From assembly GCA_028286645.1 (NCBI GenBank), contig JAQBRF010000002.1:58518-122517 (forward strand): a stretch of DNA of 64,000 bases, given 5' to 3'. Positions within the stretch are counted from its first letter, which is position 1; each line of letters opens with the position of its first letter. Source of the stretch: Candidatus Nomurabacteria bacterium (GTDB taxonomy: Bacteria > Patescibacteriota > Minisyncoccia > Phycocordibacterales > UBA5272). Positions 1-17,464 of the stretch are shown piece after piece. The position numbers and the translations under genes are program-made. The notes below the pieces were generated by a model. It was given only the letters and a program-made list of their open reading frames with translations. It was not told the DNA's origin and ran no database searches.

Positions 1-790
1 CAGCAAACCACATACCTCTTAAAAGGTTGAACTCAGAAAGATTATCAGAAAGTTTTGGTAAATTGTTCATTTGATAGACCTCATCAATTCTTCCTGTAAG
101 TAAGCTTTTTTGCTCAGGCGTGAAATTGTATAACCGATAAAATTCATATTCAGAAGATTCAGGAAACCAATTTAAATGCTCTATCATTCCGCCAATGTCA
201 TACCCAAGAGGACCTGAAAAAGAGTCTTCAAAATCTATAACCCCATTTGGATATATATTAAATGGTCCAAAATCGCCATGACAAATAACGAAAGGTATGC
301 GTTCTAACTTCCTTTGAACCTGTGTATAGGCTTCTAGTATTTTTTCTTTGTATTCTGGCAGTTCTTCACAGAGAAGATCTAAATGAATTGCTTTTGTAAA
401 AGCATACCATTTCTTATTATTAGTACACGTTTTCAGCTGCGCTTCTGTGAAGCGGACACATACTTTAATGTAGTTATCAAATGTATCATCAGAAATAACC
501 CCATTTAAAGTGACTTCGTCTCTAAATATAAGGCCAAAATGTTTTTCTCCAAGTGATTCTTCTATGTAGAATTCCATTCCATCTATCTTTCCTTCTTCTA
601 TAAGTTTGGGCACTGGGAAACCAAAAGATTCTAACTTTTTATGAATTACTAAATTCTTTTGAACTTTTTCTTGATCCCCTATTCTGAGGTACTTGAGGCC
701 GGAAATGTATATAGCAGAATCACCACCACGCTGAGTATCTACATGCACGTACTTTTCTCCTTTGAGAGACAGTTCTTTTGGGAATTCCAT
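1..790 (-). CDS. Aminoglycoside phosphotransferase/choline kinase-like protein (3' end runs off the window)
   Basis: Manual translation from ATG at 790: MEFPKELSLKGEKY...ICHGDFGPFNIYPNGVIDFED (HGD..N and IDFE motifs). Not in the ORF track because it is truncated. Confidence 0.75.
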   Translation of the reverse strand, partial: MEFPKELSLKGEKYVHVDTQRGGDSAIYISGLKYLRIGDQEKVQKNLVIHKKLESFGFPVPKLIEEGKIDGMEFYIEESLGEKHFGLIFRDEVTLNGVISDDTFDNYIKVCVRFTEAQLKTCTNNKKWYAFTKAIHLDLLCEELPEYKEKILEAYTQVQRKLERIPFVICHGDFGPFNIYPNGVIDFEDSFSGPLGYDIGGMIEHLNWFPESSEYEFYRLYNFTPEQKSLLTGRIDEVYQMNNLPKLSDNLSEFNLLRGMWFA

Positions 791-900
791 TCATAAAGTA
801 TACCCTACCCTGCTCCTCACTATAATATGTGTGCTTTAGTGAATACTGTAGGAACCACTCACTTTAATAATATGGTAAAATTACCCTATCTATAATCACC

Positions 901-1572
901 ATGAAAATAAAGGATCAATACAACGAAATAGGTAAAAATTATTCCCACGATAACCAAACTTTTTTTAAAGAAAAGGGAGAAGTAGATTTCGGGCGACAAT
1001 TCATTTTAGACAATCTTAAAGAAGTCGAGAGTAAAAGCATCCTAGATGTAGGCTGCGGGGCGGGAGATGACATCATGATTTATGAAAAGATGAAGTTTGC
1101 AAAAGTTTTCGGTGTTGACCCTTCTCGACTTATGATTGATCAGGCACTTGGAAAGATCGCGCATAAAGAAAACGTTCAGATCGGTGACTATGAGAACCTT
1201 CCCTTCCCTGATAACAGTTTTGATTATGTCGTGGGGAGATTCTCACTTCATTATGTAGAAAATATAGATAATGCTTATAAAGAAGTTCTCCGTGTACTTA
1301 AACCTGGAGGCCAATTTATAGCTATTGCGGATCACCCGATGGCTGATGCCTTCGAGAAAAAGCGGTATGAAAAAAATGGGAGGACATACATAACCATTAA
1401 ACTATTTGATGGCACAATAGAAGTTACATTCCCTCTACATCTACTGGGTGAATATATATCTGACTACTTTTTAAAATCCTTTAGATTAATTCAATTCAAG
1501 GAGCACGTCGGATCAGAAAGAGAGGTTACTCACGTCCCAAATGCATTTGGCATTACCGCTAAGAAGATTTAA
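901..1572 (+). CDS. Class I SAM-dependent methyltransferase
   Basis: ILDVGCGAG motif I, LPFPDNSFD, RVLKPGG. Confidence 0.9.
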   Translation: MKIKDQYNEIGKNYSHDNQTFFKEKGEVDFGRQFILDNLKEVESKSILDVGCGAGDDIMIYEKMKFAKVFGVDPSRLMIDQALGKIAHKENVQIGDYENLPFPDNSFDYVVGRFSLHYVENIDNAYKEVLRVLKPGGQFIAIADHPMADAFEKKRYEKNGRTYITIKLFDGTIEVTFPLHLLGEYISDYFLKSFRLIQFKEHVGSEREVTHVPNAFGITAKKI

Positions 1573-2269
1573 TCAATTCAAAAGCATAGAATGCTCTCGG
1601 GTCATTTTCTAATTCTCTCTTTCCAATTAACTTATATTTAAATCCTGAACTTGTAGCAAGATTTAGCATATCGTCAATATTCCCAAAGTTAGATTGGGAG
1701 ATATATATCCTTCCAGTAGGTTTAAGATGTTTTTGGAATCCTTCAAAAAGTTTTTTGTGTACTACCAGATTTGTATCTTTTATAGTTTGTTCAATGAATT
1801 TCCTATTTTCATCTTTAACTTTTCTGTCACTAAAAGGAGGATTGCATGTAATAACATCAAATTTCTCGTTCTGTTTTAGCGCAGAGAATACATCAGAGAC
1901 TCGACCTTCTGTCACATTCTCAACATTAAATCTTTTAGCATTAATATTCACCGTTTCAATCGCTTTTGGATTGATATCTAATGCTACTACTTTCCTAGCA
2001 CCCTTTAGAGCAGCAAACACTGCGATTACCCCTGAACCGGTACATACATCCAGCACTTCATCTGTAGGATGTATGACCATATTATTAACTATTTCTTTAC
2101 TATCATCATGCGGCCAAAATACACCTTTCAAAACTCTAAAGGTTTTATCAAGATAGGCCACCTCCACTCCTTCTTCGGGAATATTCTCTAACTTTTTAAA
2201 TATATTTTCTCGCTCTCTTTCTATTCTCTCCTGCTCCTTATCCGTAAGCCTCTTTATTTCTAGTTCCAT
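1559..2269 (-). CDS. HemK/PrmC-like (MTS family) methyltransferase
   Basis: VLDVCTGSG and FDVITCNPPF motifs. Confidence 0.85.
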   Translation of the reverse strand: MELEIKRLTDKEQERIERERENIFKKLENIPEEGVEVAYLDKTFRVLKGVFWPHDDSKEIVNNMVIHPTDEVLDVCTGSGVIAVFAALKGARKVVALDINPKAIETVNINAKRFNVENVTEGRVSDVFSALKQNEKFDVITCNPPFSDRKVKDENRKFIEQTIKDTNLVVHKKLFEGFQKHLKPTGRIYISQSNFGNIDDMLNLATSSGFKYKLIGKRELENDPRAFYAFELIKSS

Positions 2270-2311
2270 TGAAAATGTATCAGCGTCAATTAATGTGAAT
2301 CTAAATTGAAT

Positions 2312-3421
2312 CTATTTTTCTGATTTACTAATTTTCCCATTAATAAACTGCGCTCTTATTGGTAACGGCATAAAATTGTGGGAATCATCTACAGTATACG
2401 CGCTTGTAATCCCTTCAAAAGAATTAAGAGATTTTAAATATTTTGTAACTTCTTCTTTAGTGGTTATGTTATTGTCGGCCAAGTTCTTTAGCATTAGCCC
2501 TATGTCAATGGCAAAAGATTCAAATCCTGCGGGTTCTCTGTTGTTTCTTTTGATATAATCATTTTTAAACTCTGTAGCATATTCTCCTGTATTAAATGGA
2601 GTGGTCATGGTATAAACTTTTTCGGCAAGACCTGCAAGTGCTTCCGGAGTCCCTGGATTAAGAAGTACTCCCAAGACATCATAAATTGGAAGATTTATCC
2701 CTGCTTCTTTAGCTTGGACCATTATGCCTTTCCACTGGCTGGTCGGTATAGCTATAATCCCGATCACCTGTGGATTTGCTTGTTTAACTTTTGCTAGTTG
2801 GGTCCGGAAATCTGTATCTGTATCTTGAAATGTCTCAATAGTAACTTTTATTCCGGCAGAATTCAGCTTGGGAACAATCAAATCCGCAGTTGATTGGGCT
2901 CCTTCGTTTTTGGCCTGGAGTAAAGCAACGTGAGTTATTTTTTGATCAACTATTCTCTCTACAAAGAAATCAGCGAACTGTTCAGCTGTCCAGAATATTC
3001 TATATGCATAGTCGTTGTTTTTACTTGTTGCATTCATTGCAGCAACAAATGAAATAATAATTGGGGTTTTACTTTGCTGCGCCAAAGGGATTATGGGTAC
3101 GGTTGCTTTTGATATTGCTGAAACAAGAATATCGACACCATCTACTGTTGTAAGCTTTTGAAACGCAGCCACTCCACCTGCAGCATCTCCTTTACTGTCT
3201 TCATAAATAATTTTAATTTTCTTGTTTCCTCCCACAACAGAATCCATCCCCTTTTTAAAATACTCTCCGTATTGTGCGGTGGGTCCTGTAAAAGGAAGAG
3301 ATGCTCCGACCACAAGAATATCGTTACCTTTGCTTTCTCTAAAACCCAATAATTTATAAATACTAAATATTATAACTACCAACAAAACTAACATTAGAAT
3401 GTATTTGGTTGTTTTATTCAT
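2312..3421 (-). CDS. ABC transporter substrate-binding protein, branched-chain amino acid (LivJ-like) family
   Basis: N-terminal anchor; VGASLPFTGPTAQYG, YEDSKGD, TDFRTQLAKVK, FEGIT motifs. Confidence 0.85.
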   Translation of the reverse strand: MNKTTKYILMLVLLVVIIFSIYKLLGFRESKGNDILVVGASLPFTGPTAQYGEYFKKGMDSVVGGNKKIKIIYEDSKGDAAGGVAAFQKLTTVDGVDILVSAISKATVPIIPLAQQSKTPIIISFVAAMNATSKNNDYAYRIFWTAEQFADFFVERIVDQKITHVALLQAKNEGAQSTADLIVPKLNSAGIKVTIETFQDTDTDFRTQLAKVKQANPQVIGIIAIPTSQWKGIMVQAKEAGINLPIYDVLGVLLNPGTPEALAGLAEKVYTMTTPFNTGEYATEFKNDYIKRNNREPAGFESFAIDIGLMLKNLADNNITTKEEVTKYLKSLNSFEGITSAYTVDDSHNFMPLPIRAQFINGKISKSEK

Positions 3422-3569
3422 AAACCAAAGTATATCACTTCTGCGGTACGGATTATTCTGTCTAAAAGCTATTGATTTATATGCCTAAATAATCTGTATA
3501 CTACAGCGGACGACTTATTTTCTTAGCTTATTTTCAATCTGTAGGAAATAGAAGGACTCTTGTGGGAGG

Positions 3570-3788
3570 TTATAGGAACTTTTGTATTAACCAACTAATT
3601 AAAAATGTAACTACAAATATCCCCACAGCCCACGGTAACGCAATTATCCAAGCAAAAGAAGGAGGGTTGCTAGTTATAGGATCATTTCCTGAGGCTATGT
3701 GGTCGGCAATTCTTTTATATTCAATAAAATAGATGCTAACAAATGTCAGCAATGCTATGACCAGAGAAATAATAAATGATATTTTCAT
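3570..3788 (-). CDS. Small two-TM membrane protein
   Basis: Start reassigned to MKISFII (TATACT 7 nt upstream); two hydrophobic segments. Confidence 0.65.
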   Translation of the reverse strand: MKISFIISLVIALLTFVSIYFIEYKRIADHIASGNDPITSNPPSFAWIIALPWAVGIFVVTFLISWLIQKFL

Positions 3789-3937
3789 AATTAAAAGTAT
3801 ATCAGGCCTTACCTCTCTCCTCCACACTATATTTGGCCCATTCGCGACTACACTCAGGACACTAAAATTTAAACTTCTGTGGTGGACTCCATTATTACTT
3901 AGGAGCGAGTTAGAAAATAAGTTACTCCTCCTCCTGT

Positions 3938-4498
3938 TTACACTGTATCTTTAATAAATACTTTCATCACGATTATAAACAATGTGTGAAGTACCACTGG
4001 TACAACCAAACTACCAGTAACGTAAAAACTGAATCCCAAAAACATTCCTGCCATAAAAGTCATAGTAACGAGTTTCCAGTTCCATTCAGTAAGTCGAAAG
4101 CCTTTTGCTCCGTTTAAAACATGGGCAAGTCCAAAAAATAATGAGGACAAAATTATCGAATTAGGGGCGTCAAGGATTGAATAAAAATATGTCTGTACAA
4201 ATCCTCTGAAAATAATTTCTTCTGGCACTGCAATTAATAGACCTGCGTACAAAATAATTATATGTAATTTAGATAAATTTTTTCTATTTAAACCAATAAC
4301 CCCGAATTTCAAAAAGTAATTTATAGCAAAAAAGATAATGAAAGCACAGATTGTTATTGGAAGTAAAAACACTAAATCTTTCGTACTAAACATAAAGAAA
4401 ACTTGTGGTGATTTCATAAAAATGAAAAAATACACGCAAAAAAGAACATATATAGAAACTATAAAATTATGATACCTAGATTTAAATAGAGCTTTCAC
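3938..4498 (-). CDS. CPBP/Abi (CAAX protease-like) intramembrane metalloprotease
   Basis: PEEIIFRG, SSLFFGLAH and VLH motifs. Confidence 0.9.
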   Translation of the reverse strand: MKALFKSRYHNFIVSIYVLFCVYFFIFMKSPQVFFMFSTKDLVFLLPITICAFIIFFAINYFLKFGVIGLNRKNLSKLHIIILYAGLLIAVPEEIIFRGFVQTYFYSILDAPNSIILSSLFFGLAHVLNGAKGFRLTEWNWKLVTMTFMAGMFLGFSFYVTGSLVVPVVLHTLFIIVMKVFIKDTV

Positions 4499-4707
4499 TT
4501 TAGTGAATAAAGTATACCAGTTCCACTCTATCTACAATTCGCTAAGGATATGCAAATGTTGTAACTAAAAATTCCCTGTTGATTCAGGAGATTTTTAGTA
4601 ATTATTCATTGCTGTGGTGTAGTGGACTCCATTATTTACTTAGGAGAAAGATGGGTTAGAAAATAAGCAGTACCCTTGTAGTAGGTTATAGGAACTGAGA
4701 TGGGGGT

Positions 4708-5316
4708 TTACCAAGGTCTCGGGCGTTCCCTTTTAGCCCGCGCTTCAATTTGTGGAGCCTCTTTGATTAAATCTTCTTCGGATTTACCGGACACTTCTAG
4801 ATACCGCTGCTTTCTCCAGTATGTTGCCCATTCCATCAACCAGTCGACCTCCTTAACAAACCGATCTTCAGAAAGCGTTGCGTCCTTGAAATCTTTCCTA
4901 AGAACTAGTTGAGGCATACCCGAGTTTAAAGGTTGTTCATTTATATAGAAATAACCCTCGCCAAGCGTAGAAGGCTCACGATCTCCCGCCCTTTTAACTT
5001 CATCAAAAAATTCTTTTCTTTTAATCATGAGGTGGGCATCATTTACTACAAGACCAAACACTGAAAACTGTCCATCGTTTGCGGAGTAACTGAACTCGGC
5101 AGCTCCGAGTATCACTTTGAAATCCTGTTGGTCTTCTTTAAGAGAGACGTTATCTCCTATTTTCTTCCCATAGGCGGTTACATATTTTTTGGCTTCTTCG
5201 TTTGTCATGTGTTTTGGTACATTATTAGATGTTTGTATATTAAATCCTTTTTTATAATACATAAAGCCTGCACCTATAAGGAGCAATATGGCCACAATTA
5301 TTAAAGACTTTTTCAT
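4708..5316 (-). CDS. Hypothetical secreted/anchored protein, paralog of 6467-7123
   Basis: Signal/anchor MKKSLIIVAILLLIG; shares C-terminal EE.LIKEAP.I...RP..W with 6467-7123. Confidence 0.7.
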   Translation of the reverse strand: MKKSLIIVAILLLIGAGFMYYKKGFNIQTSNNVPKHMTNEEAKKYVTAYGKKIGDNVSLKEDQQDFKVILGAAEFSYSANDGQFSVFGLVVNDAHLMIKRKEFFDEVKRAGDREPSTLGEGYFYINEQPLNSGMPQLVLRKDFKDATLSEDRFVKEVDWLMEWATYWRKQRYLEVSGKSEEDLIKEAPQIEARAKRERPRPW

Positions 5317-5441
5317 ATTCAATCAAAGTATATCAGTAATTAACCGCATTCTTCACTGTGGTTAGTGGGCTATAAAGAACTTCTTTATTGCTTAGGAACA
5401 TCCTCTCATCACCCTATATTTTATGTAGGACATAAACAGGA

Positions 5442-5672
5442 TTAGAACTCATGAAAAAGAGAATAGAGTAAATACCCTGCTGAAACAATTCCTACAATTA
5501 CCGCAATTATCATCAAACTTATATCCCAAATTCCATTACAAGGAAATGAATTTAAAGAGTTTTGGGTGCAGGGTACTACCTTATCGATTATATGTCTTGA
5601 GAAGAGCGCCCTATTACCGATGATAAATAAAATAGCTGAAACTACAAGACTAATAATTGATATTTTTATCAT
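5442..5672 (-). CDS. Small membrane protein
   Basis: Two hydrophobic segments with a Cys pair; TATACT 6 nt upstream of ATG. Confidence 0.65.
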   Translation of the reverse strand: MIKISIISLVVSAILFIIGNRALFSRHIIDKVVPCTQNSLNSFPCNGIWDISLMIIAVIVGIVSAGYLLYSLFHEF

Positions 5673-5776
5673 ATTTGAAGTATATCAGTTCGCTAACGTT
5701 GATTGCTAAGTATCGAACACAATCTTTAACCCTTTGGCTACACAGTAAAAATTAGAGCAGTCCCACTATGGCAGTA

Positions 5777-6022
5777 TTAATTATCAAGTACTTGAGAAAT
5801 TAGCTCGATGAAGTCCTTAGCCCTCTTTTTTTGCTCAACCGATAAACTTTCTTCTTTTATTAATTCTTGCAAATAAAAACGGACGCCCATTAAAGCTTCA
5901 GATCCTAATGAAGCACCTTCAACAACTGTGTTAATTTTATTTTGCCAAGCGTTTAAACCTTTTTCTCCCAATTCTGCGGTAAAGTTTCTAACGTCATCAT
6001 AAAAGTTACTTGGAAGAGTCAT
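5777..6022 (-). CDS. Small hypothetical protein
   Basis: 81 aa ORF; TATACT 6 nt upstream of ATG. Confidence 0.65.
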   Translation of the reverse strand: MTLPSNFYDDVRNFTAELGEKGLNAWQNKINTVVEGASLGSEALMGVRFYLQELIKEESLSVEQKKRAKDFIELISQVLDN

Positions 6023-6125
6023 CCAAGAAGTATATCAGTTCCCAAGGAACTATTACCATATAGAAAACCAAGATTTTTAATAATCCTTGGATGTCATTAT
6101 GACTTAGACAGAAGTTTCGTGAATT

Positions 6126-6359
6126 TTAATGGTAAACACCGTTTTTGATAAACCACAGGAACCACACTAAAAAAATAAGTACGATCACGATAAGCGCTCG
6201 TCCCAACCACACAAGCCATATAGGGTGATAAAAGATTAGCAATATTGCTAACCCTGCCAAGACAAATGCAATGGGAACAAATGGAAAGGTATTCCACCAG
6301 AACGACCATGCCGCAACTGCAAATAGAATAATTATAGTAATTAGCACAGATTTTGACAT
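6126..6359 (-). CDS. Small three-TM membrane protein
   Basis: Highly hydrophobic 77 aa ORF with the shared upstream module. Confidence 0.6.
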   Translation of the reverse strand: MSKSVLITIIILFAVAAWSFWWNTFPFVPIAFVLAGLAILLIFYHPIWLVWLGRALIVIVLIFLVWFLWFIKNGVYH

Positions 6360-6466
6360 AGCGTTAATTTTGTATGCTATAAGTATACCAGCTCCTACCT
6401 CTCCTCCATATTATATTTAATGTAGTTATACCTGTCCCTCTCTCTAGTTAGCAGCTGGAAGGAAAA

Positions 6467-7123
6467 TTACCATGATTTTGGTCTATTCTTTAGCATGAAT
6501 TCATTTATTCCAGGAGCTTCTTTAATAAGTTCTTCTTCTGTTTTTGCATTTATTTCATTAAATCTGTTTACAAACCAATAATCTGCATCTGAGAGGAGCC
6601 ACCCTATTTGAATTTGTAGGTTTTTCCCATTAGTAATAGGCGCTGTGTACGTTTTTGTTAGAAGGAGCACATCCGGATTCAAATCAAAAAGTGGCTCGCG
6701 CAAAAGTTCAAATTGAGCCTCGCCATACATCATGGTGGTATATTCACGCTGTCCAATACGCACTAATCGGTCCCATAGCACGGGATATTTACTTAGTGTT
6801 TTGATGTCATATCTTACTAATCCTGAGACCAATAATTGCTTTTTTTCTGCATCATACCGAAAGATAGCTCCTTTTACGCGTACTGGCAGACCCTTTGGAA
6901 GGTCACTTTCCAGAGAACCGGTAATGTTCAAGGGAGCAGCATTAGATTCTTTAATCCATAGTTTTACTATAGCTTGAGCATCTTCAATTGTTAGTGTCTC
7001 AGCTTGAGATTGTTGAGTTATATGCTGTAATTCGAGTTTTGGAATAGGTGTGCTAGATCTTTTATAAAAATAAAAGGCGCCTAACATTAATATAATTATT
7101 ACAATTATTCCTACTTTATTCAT
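6467..7123 (-). CDS. Hypothetical secreted/anchored protein, paralog of 4708-5316
   Basis: N-terminal anchor; shared motifs GA.F.Y, GLV..D, WL...A.YW, EELIKEAP. Confidence 0.7.
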   Translation of the reverse strand: MNKVGIIVIIILMLGAFYFYKRSSTPIPKLELQHITQQSQAETLTIEDAQAIVKLWIKESNAAPLNITGSLESDLPKGLPVRVKGAIFRYDAEKKQLLVSGLVRYDIKTLSKYPVLWDRLVRIGQREYTTMMYGEAQFELLREPLFDLNPDVLLLTKTYTAPITNGKNLQIQIGWLLSDADYWFVNRFNEINAKTEEELIKEAPGINEFMLKNRPKSW

Positions 7124-7325
7124 TTCATAAGTATACCAGCACTTACCCTATGCTGCTTCACGCTATATTTAGTCCATTTGCGACTACGCTCAGGACACTA
7201 AAATTTAAACTTCACTTCGTTCAAATAAATTAAAGTGTGTGCTGTGGTGGACTCCATTATTTACTTAGGAAGGAAGTGAGCTAGAAAATAAGCAGTATCC
7301 TTGTGGTAAGGTATAGGAACCGAGA

Positions 7326-7769
7326 TTAATCAGAAAAAGTAGAAAAGAAAGAAATCTCTCCTGTTTTCTTATTTAGCGTTAACCCCTGATACTCAGCTGG
7401 AATTCCTTCAGATTTTGGAGATCGTTCCCCCAGCTGTTTCTCAAGTTGACCAAGCAATATGTCGCCGCCTCTAAATAATCTAAATTGACTATTAGAGATA
7501 CTCGCACCTAATGGGTTCAATTTTGTACTTAGTTCATGGATAAACCCTTCCACATCTTCTGTTTCTAAACCAAAAGATAGATGGGCCGCTCCTGCAACTT
7601 GAACTCCAGGATCATAAGCGGTCAATACGGCACAAGACCCTCCCGGTAAAACCTCTAATGTTTCTACTTTGCTATTTGGACCTATGACTTCAATAGAGTT
7701 AGTTAGTACTTCTATTGATCGTCCCTGTTCACTTTGATTTTCAAAAAATTGTTTCGGCTCTTGTTCCAT
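7326..7769 (-). CDS. CheD-like (deamidase fold) protein
   Basis: GGSCAVLTAYDPGVQVAGAAH resembles the CheD LGSCV...YDP....GG.AH motif; start reassigned to MEQEPK. Confidence 0.5.
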   Translation of the reverse strand: MEQEPKQFFENQSEQGRSIEVLTNSIEVIGPNSKVETLEVLPGGSCAVLTAYDPGVQVAGAAHLSFGLETEDVEGFIHELSTKLNPLGASISNSQFRLFRGGDILLGQLEKQLGERSPKSEGIPAEYQGLTLNKKTGEISFFSTFSD

Positions 7770-7836
7770 CCCTAAAGTATACCCTACTCCTCTCCACACT
7801 ATATTAGTGTGCTATGTAGAGATTACACGAATTGCA

Positions 7837-8367
7837 TTAACTAAAAAGGGAATTGTAAGCTGATTCTAAAGAAGCATTTCTATCTGGATAAATATCAAAA
7901 TAAGGAAAATTGTTTTTAGATGCCTCTTGTTCTATCTTTTTACTTTTTTTAATAAAGTATTCTGGAAGAGTGTTTTGCTTTTCTTGTGATAAGTTACTTA
8001 CCCAGTCTGACTTAGGGTCACTCTTTTTTATATCTTCCAAAGTTATGTTGCTTGTACCCAAGAAACAACACCTCAATTCTATCTTCTCTTTAAGAGATGT
8101 GACTTGCTCGGGGGTAAACAGGTCTCCTTCTATAACATAATCCTCATATTTGTTTTGAAGAATTTTCAAAAATTGCAGTAAATAAGGAAAAAACACTTCT
8201 GCCTTTTTATCTTCTTCCAAAGCTTTAAGCCCTAGTTGGGTGGGTGAAGAATCTAAAAGATTCCTTATTACATCAGTTGAAATATTAGAAATATGCTTGC
8301 GTTCAAGCATGAGAGCCGCCAACGTACTCTTTCCGACTCTTGCTGTTCCTCCAATAAGATAAATCAT
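7837..8367 (-). CDS. P-loop kinase (2-phosphoglycerate kinase/AAA_33-like)
   Basis: MIYLIGGTARVGKSTLA Walker A, STDVIR, YVIEG; start reassigned. Confidence 0.75.
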   Translation of the reverse strand: MIYLIGGTARVGKSTLAALMLERKHISNISTDVIRNLLDSSPTQLGLKALEEDKKAEVFFPYLLQFLKILQNKYEDYVIEGDLFTPEQVTSLKEKIELRCCFLGTSNITLEDIKKSDPKSDWVSNLSQEKQNTLPEYFIKKSKKIEQEASKNNFPYFDIYPDRNASLESAYNSLFS

Positions 8368-8474
8368 TGCATAAGTATACCCTACTCCCCACCACCCTAT
8401 TGAAATACATATAAGGATGTGTGCCCTTCGGACTACCTTAGGACAATCAATTTTCAACTCAGACGATATTAGGA

Positions 8475-9407
8475 CTATTTTATTTTCTTTTTGAGAAATT
8501 TCAGAACATGAGTATCTGTATATGTAGCTATATCCAGTTCTTTCGAAAAGATATTGATTAGATTTTTCTTTTCTGCTAGTGAGATTTCATTACTGCCAGG
8601 AACATGTACAGAGGCAAGGGCGATATTTTGGTGTTCTTCAATAAAAGAACGTATTTCCTCTCCTCCATCTTTAAAAAGTCCATCGTCAAGAATGTCCTGT
8701 CCATCGTACGAAGCTCGGACAAGCGCATTAAATACTTGATCTTCGGGAACGCCGGAATAGACATGTATCTTGTGTATCAAAATATCTATAAGCATTCTTC
8801 CAATATCATACGTTCTATAATATCCTTCTTCTATCATAGAGCTATTTCCTGATCGTCTAAGATATTCTTCCAGCACTTTATCAGCAATCTTTTCTACCAG
8901 CCCTTCGTTAAAAGCAACACGTGTCCTATTAAAATTTTCATCATTACTAGTCAAACCAGAGACCTCAGCTGAGATTGATGTACCGTCCTTTTCCTCAAAA
9001 TCCTCATACCCGGAAAATTGAGTAGTATGTACCTGTTCGTGAATGAGCAGTTTGAGGGTTATTAATCTCTTTCTCAACTTCTCATTCAAGATAGGTGTGA
9101 TGAATTTGAAATTTGCAGGATTGAAATGCAATGCCGATCGTTCCCCCATTTTTTCCCCAGTTGATTTGTCTACAATAGGCTCTATACCCGCTGTTGCCGC
9201 AAAATAAAATGCGTCATAGAAATATTTTATGTCTTCCTTTTTCACAAATTCCATATCCTTCTCATCTAGTCCCGCTTTCTTATATATTTCTTCGAATATG
9301 GTGCGCAGTAGATCAAAATCCACCCTCTCCAAGTCCTCTTGAATCTTTTCCTTGGATCCTTTAAAAACTTCCTCTTTTGTTTTTTCCCAAAGACTTTTAC
9401 TTTCCAT
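8475..9407 (-). CDS. Putative zincin metallopeptidase
   Basis: LIHEQVH followed by FNEGLVE (gluzincin pattern). Confidence 0.65.
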   Translation of the reverse strand: MESKSLWEKTKEEVFKGSKEKIQEDLERVDFDLLRTIFEEIYKKAGLDEKDMEFVKKEDIKYFYDAFYFAATAGIEPIVDKSTGEKMGERSALHFNPANFKFITPILNEKLRKRLITLKLLIHEQVHTTQFSGYEDFEEKDGTSISAEVSGLTSNDENFNRTRVAFNEGLVEKIADKVLEEYLRRSGNSSMIEEGYYRTYDIGRMLIDILIHKIHVYSGVPEDQVFNALVRASYDGQDILDDGLFKDGGEEIRSFIEEHQNIALASVHVPGSNEISLAEKKNLINIFSKELDIATYTDTHVLKFLKKKIK

Positions 9408-9611
9408 CACCAAAGTATACCTTACTCTCCTCTATACTATTTGGTACCGTAGCGGACTCCATCAGTTAGGAGCAGAGCGACTTAGAAAATAAGCACCACC
9501 CTGGTGGTAGGTTATAAGAACTGGGATTAAAAAATAGAAACTATTTAATACTAAACTTTAGTCTCTCAGATTTTTCATTCATATAAATATCTATTTTAAA
9601 CAGTTGCAAAC

Positions 9612-10145
9612 TTAAATAAACACATTTAAATATTTAGTAACCGCAAGAAATTCATCATAAAGATTATGCTCTTTTAAAACAGAAATAAATAAAGGATGTG
9701 TGTACCCATCAGCAATAAATTCATGAATATCTTTCCTGTAATTAAAGAATGTTAACCCATCCTTCTCTATCCCGTCAGGAAAGATATCTTTTATCTTTTC
9801 AAAAAAAGTTTTTAGTTCTTGTGTAACTTCTTGTCGAAATTCAATTGCATGAATAATTTCATGCCTCTTTGTTATTTCAGATGTACCAGAGTAAAATAAT
9901 AATGCGTCAAGTCTATCTACATAAGCTCCATTAGCTGTTTTACTAGGAGCTGTATTAAGGTAATAGGCTGGAATGTCGCGCTGTAAATTAAAACCAAATT
10001 CCTTGGCTAAAGTTACAGCATTTTCTACTTTCATTATCTGCATCTTAGTTTGAGTTCCGTCTTTCTCAGTCAAAGAGAAAGTATCTCCTTCTTTTTTCCA
10101 AGGGACTAACGGGTCTCTCACTAATAATGTGGGTTGTTCTTCCAT
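9612..10145 (-). CDS. Putative zincin-like protein
   Basis: RHEIIH and downstream HEFIAD; start reassigned to MEEQPT. Confidence 0.55.
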   Translation of the reverse strand: MEEQPTLLVRDPLVPWKKEGDTFSLTEKDGTQTKMQIMKVENAVTLAKEFGFNLQRDIPAYYLNTAPSKTANGAYVDRLDALLFYSGTSEITKRHEIIHAIEFRQEVTQELKTFFEKIKDIFPDGIEKDGLTFFNYRKDIHEFIADGYTHPLFISVLKEHNLYDEFLAVTKYLNVFI

Positions 10146-10327
10146 CTCCAAAGTATACCCTACCCTGCTCCACACTATGTTAAAAGACTCAGGTGCGCCT
10201 TACCGAACCTTCATTCGTTTCACTCCTTTTGGTTTTAAGAACCCACGGTTCTCAACGCTCGTAAACTCGCTGCTCTCCTCCACATGAAAACTCCCGTTTT
10301 CTTGACACCTTTCCCACCAGTAGACAC

Positions 10328-10369
10328 AAGTTCAAATCCCGATAGGTATACCTATCGGGATTTGAACTT
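10328..10369. repeat. Perfect 42-bp palindrome made of two head-to-head tRNA-His T-arm-like sequences
   Basis: aagttcaaatcccgataggta|tacctatcgggatttgaactt. Confidence 0.9.
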
Positions 10370-10578
10370 TCTGTGTGCCTACCGGGACTTACTTGGAACA
10401 CCATAGAAAAACAAATAACTTCGTAGAAAAACATCTTTGTTTCTGACATATATAAAGATTACATTTCTAATAAGCCCCAATTTATATGAGTCCTCGCCCA
10501 TTTGTCGTAAAAAGGTATTACCGTATCTGATATTAAACACCATTCGTATCTAAATCTACTTACTGCTATTATTTGCTT

Positions 10579-11514
10579 ATGCAGAAACGACATCATTTTA
10601 TACCCGATTCCTATCAGAGAAATTTTATTAACAATGAGGGAAAAGTATGGGTATTAGATAAAGAAAAAAAACTTTTTCAGACTAATCCTACAAACATCTT
10701 TGCGGAGGCGTACTTCTATTTACTTCCTGGCACTACCGAGGAAGAACAGTTGCGAGTAGAAAATCTGTTAGGTCTTATCGAAACCGACTTCGGGGCAATC
10801 TATAAGGAGAAAATTAATATAGGGCTTCAGATGACGCAAATGGAAAAAGGCAAACTTTCATACTTTGTTGCATGTATGTACCTGCGGACTAAATTTATGC
10901 GTAATCAGAATCTTGATATGTATAAAAAAATGAGGTCTGCAATGCAGGAGTGGGGAGAACATTATAAAAACATGTCTGATGAGCAGAAAGAAACATTTGC
11001 TTCTCTTCACCATTCAAGTGATAGTGCGACTATTACGATAGATGACATGGACTATGCTATCGAAAATAATAATGAAATTCATACTGAACAACTTATATCC
11101 CTTCTTCCAGAGATTGCTGATATTTTATTTAATATGGAGTAGTTTTTTTTGAGCCCTCAGAATACCAACAAAACTTTTATAAGTTCTGATAATCCTTTTT
11201 GTATGATAAGACCAGAAGCTATTGCAAAATTTGGTCTCAATAAATTTGGAAGTCTACCTGGTCTAAAGGCTAAAGACGTAGAAGTTTCACTTCCTCTTTC
11301 ATCTACTAAAATGCTATTTATGAGTTGGAACTTAAAATCAGAGGTGTTCATGAAAATACCAGATGATAATGTCGATGTATTTAATGCTCGAAGTAGATTA
11401 CATGCTCATGATAAATTAATAGCCTCGAATAAAGAGGTCCTTCAGGAGATTGTTGATAAATCAGACGGAAAAGATAAGAACGATTTTAATATGTTTGATT
11501 TCGAAACTAAGTAG
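10579..11514 (+). pseudogene. DUF4238-like protein interrupted by one in-frame TAG
   Basis: KRHHFIP..Y N-terminus; FISSDNP and LPLSS in the second ORF; both ORFs in the same frame, TAG at 11140-11142. Confidence 0.7.
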
Positions 11515-11541
11515 AGGATTAGACTTTATATACTCTGTAAG

Positions 11542-11733
11542 TTACTTAAACTTACAGTCAGTTAAGTACCCTCTTTCGTCGATAACTGCCATGCCCACTT
11601 GCTTACGGCACCTTATAACATCTTGATTTGAATCTCCTATGTGTACACCTGGGTAATGCGCCTCTTTAGGTTCATTTGCTTTTATAGAAAAAACCCCAGC
11701 AATTAATACAATAATTATTAAAAAATACTTCAT
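11542..11733 (-). CDS. Small secreted protein
   Basis: Signal peptide MKYFLIIIVLIAGVFSIKA; two Cys. Confidence 0.55.
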   Translation of the reverse strand: MKYFLIIIVLIAGVFSIKANEPKEAHYPGVHIGDSNQDVIRCRKQVGMAVIDERGYLTDCKFK

Positions 11734-11755
11734 ATTTGCATTTTGGAAGCAAAAA

Positions 11756-11832
11756 GCCCCCAAGGTTGACGACCTTTCGGCCGCCCATATCCGTTTCCAG
11801 ATACGTCTCACTACAAACAAACTCTTGGAACC
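11756..11832 (-). ncRNA. Candidate structured RNA leader (multi-way junction with two GAAA tetraloops)
   Basis: Minus strand: ccaagagtt..gtatctg-GAAA-cggatat..ggcggcc-GAAA-ggtcgtc..aaccttgg. Confidence 0.4.
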
Positions 11833-12026
11833 GTAATTACTCAATGTGATAATAGTTTTGCAACTACTTGTTATGGAAACCATGGGGGCCTACCGGGAAT
11901 TTCTTCGACAAGTATTTGTTCGCCGCCGCTCACAAATCTCGCCTCCCGCCCCTCGCCCATTTTCCTTGCTAGAAAAATATGGCTGTGGTCTTCGAATCCG
12001 GACGTAAACAAAGCAGTTTGTTTACT

Positions 12027-12083
12027 TAGGCACACCAAATACAAAAACGGCCATAAAGACCGTTTTTGTATTTGGTGTGCCTA
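12027..12083. repeat. 24-bp perfect inverted repeat including the tRNA-His 3' end
   Basis: taggcacaccaaatacaaaaacgg / ccgtttttgtatttggtgtgccta. Confidence 0.9.
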
Positions 12084-12173
12084 GTCGAGACACCGGTCGA
12101 ACTTCTCGCGAAATTGCAGAGATGTTTTTAAGCACTATCCCGCAGGCAACGTCTCGACGTCCTGATGTCCCTA

Positions 12174-12365
12174 CTACACAGCAGAATCTTCGTCTGCAGT
12201 AGTTCGCTTCTGTCTTTTTTCTTCTTGATAGTCATTCCAGAGAAGCAGCAGAAAGTCACTCATAGCTGCGTCAGCTTGACGAAGTTCTTCTTCGGTGAAG
12301 TCCGGGAAGATCTCGCGAATCACTGGTGCGACTTCCATATCTTCGGGTAGGCGTTTGGGGTGCAT
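12174..12365 (-). CDS. Small hypothetical protein
   Basis: C-terminal part of ORF 12174-12560 (IREIFPDFTEEELRQAD...); start uncertain. Confidence 0.4.
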   Translation of the reverse strand: MHPKRLPEDMEVAPVIREIFPDFTEEELRQADAAMSDFLLLLWNDYQEEKRQKRTTADEDSAV

Positions 12366-12548
12366 GGGGCGATGGGAGGCTCTGAGGTTATTAGGCAGAG
12401 CTAACGCTATCCATAGCACGATATTGACAAATGTCCAAAATATGATTGGATATAAGTAAGTAGTTCTTGTCCTCAGTATTTGGTTGCGGAATGAAGTTCG
12501 AGACTTAAGCAGTTCGCGAATTTCTCCCCTAACCAAGACGAGGTCAGC

Positions 12549-13013
12549 ATGCAGATCCACGAGAAGATTGGAAAGTTGGGTGCATCGGTATTCCTGATGT
12601 CAATGATCCCGAACACTCCCGAAGGGAACGAAGCGATCGACACTATGCTTGCGAAAGCGGGCGCGCAGATGCTGCTGTGGTGCAACGCGCTTTACTATCC
12701 GACGATGGAGTTCGCCGAGTGGGTGCATCAACAAGAAACTCGCATTGAGGAGCGTTTCAAGGCAAACCCTGCTTTGGATCGCATGAAAAAAGAGGCGGAT
12801 TTCCTTCTCGAAGCCCACTGGGATCAGGAGTTAGAAGAAGCTCGCGAGGAATACGCAAACGATCCCGAGCATCGAGCTATGGTGGCCCGAATCAACGAGA
12901 AGATCGAGGAGCGGCTCGCCGCGGATCCGGAACTACGTCGGGAGTTTGAGGAAGGACTGGCAGCACATATCGCTCTTGTCTGCGAACAAAGCGCCCGCAA
13001 ACGGATTCACTAA
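12549..13013 (+). CDS. Hypothetical acidic helical protein (GC-rich, foreign)
   Basis: 154 aa ORF followed by the hairpin aggcggccc..gggctgcct and a T-run. Confidence 0.6.
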   Translation: MQIHEKIGKLGASVFLMSMIPNTPEGNEAIDTMLAKAGAQMLLWCNALYYPTMEFAEWVHQQETRIEERFKANPALDRMKKEADFLLEAHWDQELEEAREEYANDPEHRAMVARINEKIEERLAADPELRREFEEGLAAHIALVCEQSARKRIH

Positions 13014-13071
13014 CATTCTCCTTCTGGGAAAACACTTCAGGCGGCCCTCCCGGGCTGCCTTTTTACTTTTG

Positions 13072-13329
13072 ATGCCAAATAGAGAAAGTATCCGTCAAGA
13101 ACACACTTTGCAAAAGTGTACAAGGCTGGTCGAGGAGAAAACGCTTACTCTGTAAGTCTCATTTGCAATGCAACAAATTACTTTCTCCGCAAGACTACAA
13201 AAATTGCCAAATTTTCCTATTAGTGTGCCTACTCGGGACACCGGTCGAACTTTGAGTGAAATTGCCGAGTTGTTTTTAAGCGTCATTCCGCAGCCAACAT
13301 CTCCACGTCCTAACATCTCTACTCACTAA
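13072..13329 (+). pseudogene. Possible degenerate C-terminal fragment of a site-specific (serine-type) recombinase spanning an att-like site
   Basis: RLVEEKTLTL*VSFAMQQITFSARLQKLPNFPISVPTRDTGRTLSEIAELFL; the tail is repeated in-frame at 12074-12202; family assignment from recall, not searched. Confidence 0.35.
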
Positions 13330-13602
13330 CAGCGGCCCTTCAAAATTGACAGCTTGAGTATGCGTGTTAGGCTGAAATTGGATATCGCTTTACATATCCT
13401 CATAGTCGAGCCCCATGAACTCCGCAGCCCGGAGTGCCAACGACCTCCTATGACCGCCATTGCGGCTTAGCCCCTTCCGAATCGGAGGGGCATTTTTGTT
13501 TCTCAGAGTTGCCTCTCGGTCCCAATATGTAACCGTTACGCGCTTTGAGGTTTTGTCTATGCTAAATGTGGTCGATATTATTAGCCAAGACCAAGAACAC
13601 AT

Positions 13603-13788
13603 ATGGAAACACTAGGAGACCGCTTCCTTGCGCCAACCGCTCGGGAGAACCTCTTTGAGTCAATAGACTATCTTCACGAATCGATTCGTAATGCACGCGA
13701 ATGCGTGTACGACATCGAGCGAAGCATAGACGCTTCGCTTGATGAGATTCGAGGAAAGAAGCCTGAGGCAGCTCAAGAGAAGAAGTAG
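13603..13788 (+). CDS. Small hypothetical protein
   Basis: 61 aa ATG ORF, helical and charged. Confidence 0.4.
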   Translation: METLGDRFLAPTARENLFESIDYLHESIRNARECVYDIERSIDASLDEIRGKKPEAAQEKK

Positions 13789-13875
13789 GGTGTAGCTAAT
13801 ACACCCCTCTCACGAAGACGAATATCGTGGGGGACATGGATTTAAGTTGCAGAAACGCAATGCGATTTGAATCTG

Positions 13876-13948
13876 TGTGCCTACCGGGATTCGAACCCGG
13901 ACTGAGGGCTCCACAAGCCCGCGTGCTAACCATTACACTATAGGCACC
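13876..13948 (-). tRNA. tRNA-His(GTG)
   Basis: GGTGCCTATAGTGTAATGG...GGGC-TTGTGGA-GCCC...GGTTCGAATCCCGGTAGGCACA; CCA not encoded. Confidence 0.95.
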
Positions 13949-14035
13949 ATCTGCTACATTCATTTCTGAATTAGGCCTTTACTCTAACATGATTTCAAGA
14001 TTTTTCGAAGAAATTATGATAGTATTTCCTTACTT

Positions 14036-14119
14036 GCCCAGGTGGCGAAACTGGTAGACGCACTACCTTGAGGTGGTAGCGCTGGCAACGGCATGGAGGT
14101 TCAAGTCCTCTCCTGGGCA
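14036..14119 (+). tRNA. tRNA-Leu(GAG)
   Basis: GCCCAGG..ctacc-TTGAGGT-ggtag, long variable arm, GGTTCAAGTCC. Confidence 0.95.
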
Positions 14120-14385
14120 CAATTTTTTAAACGGCTTCGGCCGTTTTAAATTTGGGCGACACCTGCGTGTCGTACGTAAGGACTTCCGGAGTATGATCCC
14201 GTTTTCTTAGATTATAATCAATCTCTTGAAATCGCAGTCCTTTAGGATTTTGCGAGCACGCAAAACGACGAGGAGTGGCCGGCGAACTTTTCTGCTCGGC
14301 GGAGAGAAAAGATTTGTCGAAAAGGCCCTCCTCTACACAAGTCAACTTTTAAATTAAAATCTCGATCTTTCGATCGAGATTTTAA

Positions 14386-16572: not shown

Positions 16573-17319
16573 ATGGATAAAGCACTCGTGACATCGTTGG
16601 AAGAAATAGGATTTAAGCACAAAGAGGCTTTGGTTTATGTAGCTTTAACATCTGTTGGAGAAAGCCAGGTGAGCGAGCTTGCGATATTAACAAAACTAAA
16701 GAGGCCGATAATCTACGTAATCTTGGAAGATCTAATTAAAAGAGGCTTCGTCTCTAAGTTGCCCGGGAAGAAAGTAAATACATACCATGCATTTGATGCG
16801 GACATTATTCTGAAAAAGTTAAAGTCGAGCATCACCCACTTTGACGAACTTATTCCCGTCTTTAAAACATTAAGAAATCGAGGCGGCGTTCGACCGAAGA
16901 TTTCATACATAGAAACAAAAGAAGGTATAGAAAATTTGCTAGAAGAAATAAACTATACGGTCTCCCCTCTTTTTATATCTTCCTATGCAAGATTTGAGCA
17001 TCATTTCCCCGGAGTGCTAATGCGCTGGATAAAAAATTATAAAAAAGGCCTCTATAAAAAACTGGTAGGTCGTCATATAGTTCCAGACGATAAAAAAGAA
17101 TTCTTTTATGCGAAAGCCTTCCTTGGCATTAAACAGAATGTACGAACGCTTTCAATATTGAAAGAAAATAAAATGGATATTTCTATTTATGCAGATAAAA
17201 TTTCAATAACAAACCTCGGGGACGCTCTTTTTGCTGTTGTTATCGAATCAAAAGATTTGGTCGGCTCTATACGTCCTATTTTTGAATTAGCTTGGCAAAA
17301 CGCAAAAGAGATAAAGTAA
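16573..17319 (+). CDS. TrmB-family transcriptional regulator
   Basis: LEEIGF..KEALVYVAL, RPIIY.ILEDL..RG winged HTH; PLD-like C-terminal domain. Confidence 0.85.
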   Translation: MDKALVTSLEEIGFKHKEALVYVALTSVGESQVSELAILTKLKRPIIYVILEDLIKRGFVSKLPGKKVNTYHAFDADIILKKLKSSITHFDELIPVFKTLRNRGGVRPKISYIETKEGIENLLEEINYTVSPLFISSYARFEHHFPGVLMRWIKNYKKGLYKKLVGRHIVPDDKKEFFYAKAFLGIKQNVRTLSILKENKMDISIYADKISITNLGDALFAVVIESKDLVGSIRPIFELAWQNAKEIK

Positions 17320-17329
17320 AAACATTTCT

Positions 17330-17349
17330 GTGGGAGATACAGGACTCGA
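17330..17349. repeat. 20-bp direct repeat of the tRNA-Val 3' end
   Basis: gtgggagatacaggactcga identical to 17467-17486. Confidence 0.9.
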
Positions 17350-17464
17350 CTACAAGTTTTCTTTCGCCGTCGCTCAAGAAACTCGCAGCCCGCGGCTCGT
17401 GGTTTTTCTTGTTAGAAAAACATCACTGCGCCCTTCTCGTCCTGCAAAACAAAACCATTTGTTT

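Follow-up and report, generated by a model that had tools for sequence, protein, structure and literature searches.

Probable layered insertions by large serine recombinases at the 3' end of a tRNA-His gene in a Candidatus Nomurabacteria genome

In this study, we explored the sequence beside a transfer RNA (tRNA) gene, tRNA-His(GTG), in a 64,000-nucleotide stretch of Candidatus Nomurabacteria bacterium (contig JAQBRF010000002.1, positions 58,518 to 122,517; this whole stretch is called the window, and unlabelled coordinates refer to it). The source genome measures 863 kb and is 98% complete. The gene was placed at 13875-13947 on the minus strand by ARAGORN and Rfam, and the plus strand to its left is antisense to the region downstream of the tRNA. 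We consider it highly probable that a stack of insertions has built up here at the final bases of tRNA-His, made by large serine recombinases (LSRs) that carry attP inside the 3' end of their own gene. Four observations carry this reading: the layout of intact elements, the homology of the junction peptides to LSR C-termini, a fixed shift of a motif between these tails and the tRNA, and an empty site in a relative. With like junctions the stack extends about 14.4 kb from tRNA-His and reaches about 507 bp left of the window start; it is made of remnants or derivatives and contains no complete element. An earlier note on this DNA had described each tRNA-like scar as an orphaned recombinase tail. 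This holds for most scars, as judged from the C-termini of two LSR families and from intact elements, and is thus partly supported, with three corrections concerning the frame at 10374, the copy at 11888, which belongs to a non-coding hairpin element, and a supposed decay of tRNA likeness with distance.

13875..13947, minus strand: tRNA-His(GTG), target of integration; the attB' arm would be its 3' end read in antisense, where GAAC of the T-loop stands at +16, counted from the TGTG core

The genome holds three LSR genes, two of which run antisense into tRNA-Leu and tRNA-Ala and serve as intact controls. At the far junction of the tRNA-Leu element, GTGCCC is common with the tRNA, the LSR frame stays open for 46 codons and ACTTGAAC recurs 5 bp farther out (offset counted by eye). 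The far junction of the tRNA-Ala element has 9 bp in common with its tRNA, 38 open codons and a similar motif, likewise ending in AAC, 5 bp farther out (by eye). PF07508 is present in 132 of 201 genomes of the order, and among the best matches listed an LSR overlaps a tRNA 3' end in antisense in 14 of 29 other loci, 2 being cut by contig ends. For tRNA-His itself, 38 stretches were fetched from relatives and 6 without the gene were dropped, leaving 32 loci. LSR genes that end in tRNA-His, for which the earlier note had proposed a check, occur in three of these loci (L042, L044 and L061). The LSRs of L042 and L044 cross the core in the frame that we call C-A, the LSR of L061 in the frame called VP. 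The L042 far junction reads CAVVEMIRT and has 7 bp in common with its tRNA. The L061 LSR ends RVPTGI* at the tRNA, and the protein P0002, 100% identical to it over the searched part, goes on VPQRDAVRT; a 79%-identical tail, together with some 15 codons of the left arm, is present on a separate contig of the L061 genome.

Three side observations concern these LSRs. The tRNA-Ala element (G000:C5:249005-255741) has genes resembling, by eye, a DNA methyltransferase, an endonuclease and a Vsr-like protein. A third LSR group (G000:C5:122506-124140; L104, L107, L118) has no tRNA end, its 3' end overlapping the start of another gene, which we take to be ychF-like. The protein cluster of the VP-family LSR of L061/P0002 includes a 2.3-Mb contig, and its named homologues come from phyla outside the Candidate Phyla Radiation, a pattern that would fit cross-lineage transfer or misbinning.

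Within the stack, the exact repeat of 18 bp reported before (10370-10387 and 13872-13889) is real, any 18-mer repeat arising in 1 of 2000 mononucleotide shuffles of the region. The repeats at 12075 and 13223 carry the peptides quoted for them; their length, given earlier as about 90 bp, is 104 nucleotides (12072-12175 versus 13220-13323; 81% identity), of which just 8-9 bp are in common with the tRNA. The junction peptides are as follows.

13225..13329, plus strand: LSR C-terminal tail, putative attP' arm, VP frame VPTRDTGRT; GAAC at +22; 9 bp equal to the tRNA end
12077..12202, plus strand: LSR tail, putative attP' arm, VP frame VPSRDTGRT; GAAC at +22; 81% identical to the 13225 copy
10374..10406, plus strand: LSR tail, putative attP' arm, C-A frame CAYRDLLGTP*; 14 bp equal to the tRNA end, a 5-bp insertion, then TTGGAAC; GAAC at +21
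7238..7326, plus strand: CAVVDSI-family junction, with like copies at 3878, 4613 and 9440
830..859, plus strand: LSR tail, putative attP' arm, C-A frame CALVNTVGT; GAAC at +21
13123..13223, plus strand: probable LSR 3'-end remnant (P arm) with an in-frame TAA; collinear with the VP C-terminal profile, with 6 extra residues

Judged by their sequences, the tails at 12076 and 13224 fit an LSR family ending VPxRDxxRT, and those at 10374, 830 and the upstream junctions fit a family ending CAxxxxx[RG]T. Likeness to LSR C-termini was thus found in two families. For the C-A family, the 150 homologues of the L042 LSR finish in tRNA-antisense peptides or in tails like CGLVNEVRT. A matrix from 38 of these 150, picked by a pattern, ranked the tail at 830 third, that at -507 sixth, that at -135 ninth and that at 10374, in frame CAYRDLLGT, 57th out of 1.73 million positions in six frames. 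With a DNA matrix built on 17 tails from relatives, -507, -135 and 830 took ranks 1, 2 and 4, and 10374 just rank 40 of the 47 listed. The frame VCLPGLTWNT, proposed earlier for the copy at 10373, is one possible translation, the frame matching LSRs being the one from 10374 listed above. The junctions named at 829 and 7235 (830 and 7238) do read CALVNTVGT and CAVVDSII. At 7238 the first seven residues, CAVVDSI, equal the tail of the relative L069 with differing codons and the GAAC motif is missing, so that this junction is a degraded or composite tail. For the VP family, P-x-R-D-x-x-R-T-like tails terminate most of the 60 homologues listed (of 120). The stop-broken segment 13123-13223 is in frame with the tail at 13225, as the earlier note had it, and the VP C-terminal profile aligns collinearly with 13123-13287, weakly, at 7.5 bits in the hidden Markov model (HMM) search, second of 8634 pieces. 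In BLASTP against 307 C-termini, the 13123-13326 peptide aligned in the expected position to one of the VP family with 27.3 bits, and 200 shuffles reached no more than 25.0. Taken by sequence, LSR-type C-terminal tails in the integrase frame can be recognised at 830, 10374, 12076 and 13224 and weakly at 7238, and none at 11888. A sequence likeness to an LSR end in the tRNA-proximal left arm (C-A frame VAETQCDLNL) is suggestive.

Tails and tRNA differ in the placement of one motif. GAAC stands at +16 from the core in all 30 tRNA-His genes scored and at +21 in 12 of 15 relative pattern hits, the rest being one false hit, one interrupted copy and one GAAT variant. In the window it stands at +21 or +22 in six of the eight junctions tested and is absent at 7238 and 11887. 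Relative to the tRNA, the motif thus lies 5 bp (C-A family) or 6 bp (VP family) farther from the core. In the accessible part of a study of the serine integrase LI/A118 (PMC3783163), the motif of the zinc-ribbon domain is 5 bp nearer the crossover in attB than in attP. By analogy, the T-loop of the tRNA would be the attB motif, the tails would be attP' arms, and GAAC would mark the zinc-ribbon-domain site. The LI/A118 shift is matched here clearly on the right arm only; for the left arms a mirrored motif was not established, and left flanks vary among genomes. In module 4510-4612 (also in L046, L050 and L053), AGTTCC and G(T/G/A)AACT stand inverted, 36-38 bp apart, followed by a hairpin (by eye), a spacing that to the eye resembles a complete attP-type site. 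As a separate matter, the discriminator base of tRNA-His is A here (13875-13947) and in most genus relatives inspected (loci L040-L072). In most bacteria it is C, and the A may point to an unusual histidyl-tRNA identity.

The shared core measures 4-14 bp across junctions and 4-9 bp at most of them. If the tail at 10374 is an attP' arm, the 18-bp match at 10370 would stem from the close resemblance of an attP arm to the tRNA instead of a recent duplication, and the degree of identity could not serve as a clock. The generally decaying match that the earlier note had described is at odds with the exact runs from the core, which measure 9 bp at a distance of 652 bp from the gene, 8 bp at 1800, 14 (plus 4 to the left) at 3502 and 4-6 beyond, with 11 exact bp in the 11888 copy about 1990 bp away; the intact L042 element shares just 7 bp. 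The same values bear on a different explanation, in which the scars are ordinary duplications of the tRNA 3'-end target left by islands of the tyrosine-integrase type and decayed with age, and the peptides are accidental antisense readings. Such duplication fits the 11888 copy, given that 11 of 37 tRNA and transfer-messenger RNA (tmRNA) genes have a direct copy of at least 10 bp within 330 bp, against 4 of 2000 controls; moreover, the 18-bp match at 10370 resembles a classic direct repeat and the genome has two tyrosine recombinase matches (PF00589). Neither of these is near the stack, however, and the degree of tRNA identity does not follow distance. Conservation at 12072/13220 spans 104 bp, far more than the 8-9 bp in common with the tRNA; the tails match C-termini of LSRs and show a fixed 5-6-bp shift instead of random decay, and the intact LSR controls contradict the target-duplication explanation for 10374, 12076, 13224 and 830. 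We regard it as highly improbable.

The copy at 11888 belongs to a non-coding element, and a second block of this kind lies farther from the tRNA.

11885..12075, no strand: non-coding, tRNA-end-copying hairpin element, His-specific copy; found with nhmmer; abuts tRNA-His in relatives
10190..10373, no strand: second non-coding hairpin block, terminating in a perfect 42-bp palindrome (10328-10369) made of tRNA-His T-arm sequence

The first comprises a direct 11-bp copy of the tRNA end (11888-11898), a structured core, an interrupted inverted copy and a 24-bp hairpin (12027-12083). An nhmmer model from 13 other tRNA/tmRNA flanks, with the His copy excluded, matches 11864-12073 (E 6e-30). The Rfam scan of 1-14300 gave two tRNAs only above threshold, and no family for the His hairpin copy. 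The element follows many tRNAs here, opening with a direct copy of the end of its own tRNA and carrying an inverted copy too; there are 22 hits in the genome (G000), the window copies being 11885-12075, 14142-14362 and 17234-17464. It sits just beyond the far junction of both the tRNA-Leu and the tRNA-Ala element, adjoins tRNA-His in 5 of the 32 relative loci and, in a 434-nucleotide contig of run X2, lies beside tRNA-His without 12076-13875. The empty target site is therefore present in relatives: position 12076 was probably once the tRNA end, and modules A and B, described below, would have come later. Hairpin copies 5-7 kb off a tRNA mark later insertions. Likewise, a palindrome like 10328-10369 is found next to tRNA-His in L053 and L058 and again about 570 bp left of the window; the one left of 10374 would mark where the tRNA end lay earlier. 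Hits of the tail matrix and of the hairpin element also cluster at G000:C5:77000-81300, where no tRNA was found by ARAGORN.

Between the hairpin element and the tRNA lie the two modules.

12076..13223, plus strand: module A, 1148 bp, 49% GC; VP tail, orphan open reading frame (ORF) of 154 amino acids at 12549-13013, LSR remnant; terminator-like hairpin near 13039-13065 (by eye)
13224..13875, plus strand: module B, 652 bp, 49% GC; VP tail, 61-amino-acid ORF at 13603-13788, left arm directly beside the tRNA; by eye, a hairpin near 13805-13835; no recombinase gene

Module A would be an internally deleted element with both arms kept. Local tandem duplication of a single insert followed by divergence, with fewer independent events than scars, would account for the adjacency and 81% identity of the two tails and for the GC content of about 49% in both modules against 35-38% around them. 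The likeness between the modules ends after about 104 bp, however, the cargo and right ends differ, and further molecules of the same runs hold other variants of the tail; we thus consider such a duplication unlikely.

The reading of the region as a stack of LSR insertions has several points against it. No LSR gene or body was found in the tRNA-His stack by domain search or by tblastn of the window, and all three LSRs of the genome are located outside it. The C-A picking pattern was composed after the window had been seen and is not fully blind, and the C-A matrix scores low for the VP tails (2.5 and 3.4) and for 7238 (5.7, under the listing cut-off). The HMM match of the 13123-13223 remnant is weak genome-wide (independent E value, iE, 1.8). 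Close relatives of the VP tails were absent from a DNA search of 53 genus genomes and from pattern searches of metagenome and viral contigs, and none of 50 candidates among longer proteins carried such a tail. The search for relatives of the 154-amino-acid cargo of module A returned none, nor did the 13790-13880 arm occur in any of 400 other genomes of the phylum. With no close relative of the VP tails or of the module A and B cargo found, their parent element was not recovered. The ratio of non-synonymous to synonymous substitution rates (dN/dS) in the VP pair, 0.35 over 26 codons and 0.51 over 33, has the direction that the earlier note's reading predicts and is the lowest of six frames, but the synonymous bias is not significant (permutation p ~0.055, Fisher p 0.16); nor is it among 11 distinct relative tails (p 0.14-0.18). 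The codon pattern leans towards coding ancestry without being proof, and the att arm is constrained as DNA too. Two loci on genome contigs that matched the VP tails were set aside as chance matches. A class-wide protein search with these tails gave hits in 13 of 400 other genomes (E 1e-4 to 7e-3), none with an LSR match, and was rejected; the ORFs of about 606 amino acids among them are presumably TypA/BipA, and the remainder noise.

We propose a model in which crossover would take place in a core of 4-9 bp, TGTG[C/G], at the tRNA 3' end, so that the tRNA would stay intact, its acceptor and T arm acting as the attB' arm. Once integrated, the body of the LSR gene would run into the tRNA in antisense, and the attP' arm, made of the final ~10-45 codons of the gene, would end up at the far end of the element. 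Each new insertion would enter between the prior one and the tRNA, with growth at the tRNA end. Two LSR families would have used tRNA-His, crossing the core in different reading frames, and the recombinase bodies would have been lost since, or the modules would have moved as recombinase-less derivatives. The separate non-coding hairpin element, which also copies the tRNA end, would explain 11888. From old to new, the order would be upstream cassettes, the 10374 unit, the hairpin element, module A and module B. In run X1, no contig bridges 10340-10357 or 13800-13809 with 31 letters, and the assembly order at these two places is therefore without independent confirmation; runs X2 and X3 hold almost none of the stretch's words. 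The contig joints 3831-10311 and 10378-1 were set aside, as they derive from like sequence just beyond the stretch.

The cargo of the stack bears on its present function.

10573..11514, plus strand: cargo DUF4238 gene; Pfam profile positions 1-184 and 192-280, in-frame TAG at 11140-11142; its C-terminal half matches the PADLOC model DUF4238-Pers, a defence candidate
1..10190, minus strand: older part of the stack; mostly single genes in tRNA sense, many with an upstream AAGTATAC promoter-like motif; further junction-like sites at 3836, 7170, 7808 and 8420 (judged by eye)

It looks as if the cargo genes sat between an att arm and the promoter-like motif AAGTATAC...CACTAT. In the intact L042 element, the sequence right after the tail resembles this motif (window 796-10180). 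Different cassettes (4708-5322 and 6467-7123) encode two paralogous proteins that look secreted and are 30% identical. It is conceivable, if doubtful, that the units are still working cassettes: single-gene modules without a recombinase, which keep both att arms, excise as circles and re-enter at the tRNA through an LSR acting in trans. Such cassettes would be integron-like, are compatible with the origin of the tails from LSR genes and differ from remnants in present function. Units often consist of a tail, one gene and a promoter-like motif, and one tail type is nearly invariant between genomes and also forms the far end of the LSR-bearing stretch of L044. Clear tails occur in 10 of the 32 relative loci, in 8 of which the LSR is absent from the available DNA, though three of these eight lie on short contigs. 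The cargo at 3938-4498 has a counterpart with 64% identity in a cassette behind the tRNA-His gene of L053, but matches in the relative loci exist for 2 of 25 cargo proteins only; moreover, the DUF4238 gene is broken and several of the junctions have decayed. Two runs contain contigs in which a VP tail is joined to the 13800-13884 arm, one linking 13884 with 12085 and the other 13874 with 13223; in the latter, 9 letters fit either side. The likeness threshold was 85, the runs belong to one study, and one of them may be the source sample. These contigs measure 137 and 151 nucleotides at depths of 4.5 and 2.2, with 5 and 12 differing letters; they thus stem from related molecules, and a tandem junction fits as well as a circle. 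The inner junction of L055 retains about 15 codons of LSR end, as module A seems to.

The basic mechanism has published precedent, and the locus is a compact, layered form of a known process. Literature searches, with most subscription journals outside reach, returned no paper on such arrays in Patescibacteria. The accessible part of a study of Dehalococcoides (PMC3146451) describes ssrA islands in tandem behind a structural RNA gene, in which the gene of an LSR of about 540 amino acids, DsiB, always overlaps the att junction at its 3' end; the gene runs into the complementary strand of ssrA, a 3' fragment located on the circle or on an adjacent island can complete it, and 15 of 31 islands are not listed there with an integration module. 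As described in that part, the ssrA islands have a T-loop crossover, a 20-bp direct repeat and a six-gene module, whereas here a 4-9-bp core lies at the last bases of the tRNA, units measure 0.2-1.5 kb and are mostly single-gene, and two LSR families use one site in different frames. The six-gene DsiB/DsiA module is missing, with no resolvase-domain gene in the stack. The archaeal SSV-type 'suicidal' integrases, in the accessible part of their description (PMC7253208), also carry att in the integrase ORF, so that integration splits the gene, and hybrid genes arise from mixed pieces. Those enzymes are tyrosine recombinases, and their split leaves two inactive pieces, whereas in the present case a serine recombinase loses no more than its final ~10-45 codons and both Pfam domains searched remain in the LSR body.

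Integrons are arrays of small, mostly co-oriented single-gene units that grow at one fixed site. The stack is alike in its small co-oriented single-gene units and its one fixed growth site, and differs in having LSR att arms as boundaries, an own promoter-like motif in many units and a tRNA end as site. No PF00589 match was found in or beside the stack, and no search aimed at IntI was made. The locus works like a DsiB-type serine-integrase island stack and is neither a member of the ssrA islands nor an integron. We only tentatively suggest that Patescibacteria capture genes in an integron-like manner by serine recombinases, with one-gene cassettes whose attP arm mimics the tRNA being moved in trans. 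In such capture, at least two LSR families would use the T-loop as distal motif, a variable left arm would be tolerated, and the tRNA end would be a reusable landing site.

To this known process the locus contributes the use of one site by two recombinase families, intact controls from its own genome and a relative with an empty site. Together, tails and displaced hairpin elements allow insertions to be bounded and placed in order, and LSRs to be matched to their att sites; a plain search for direct repeats would overlook these, the shared core being just a few bases long. LSRs that recognise a tRNA 3' end and spare the gene are candidate integration tools. For the organism itself, a reusable landing site at the tRNA end would account for the gain of accessory genes in its streamlined genome.

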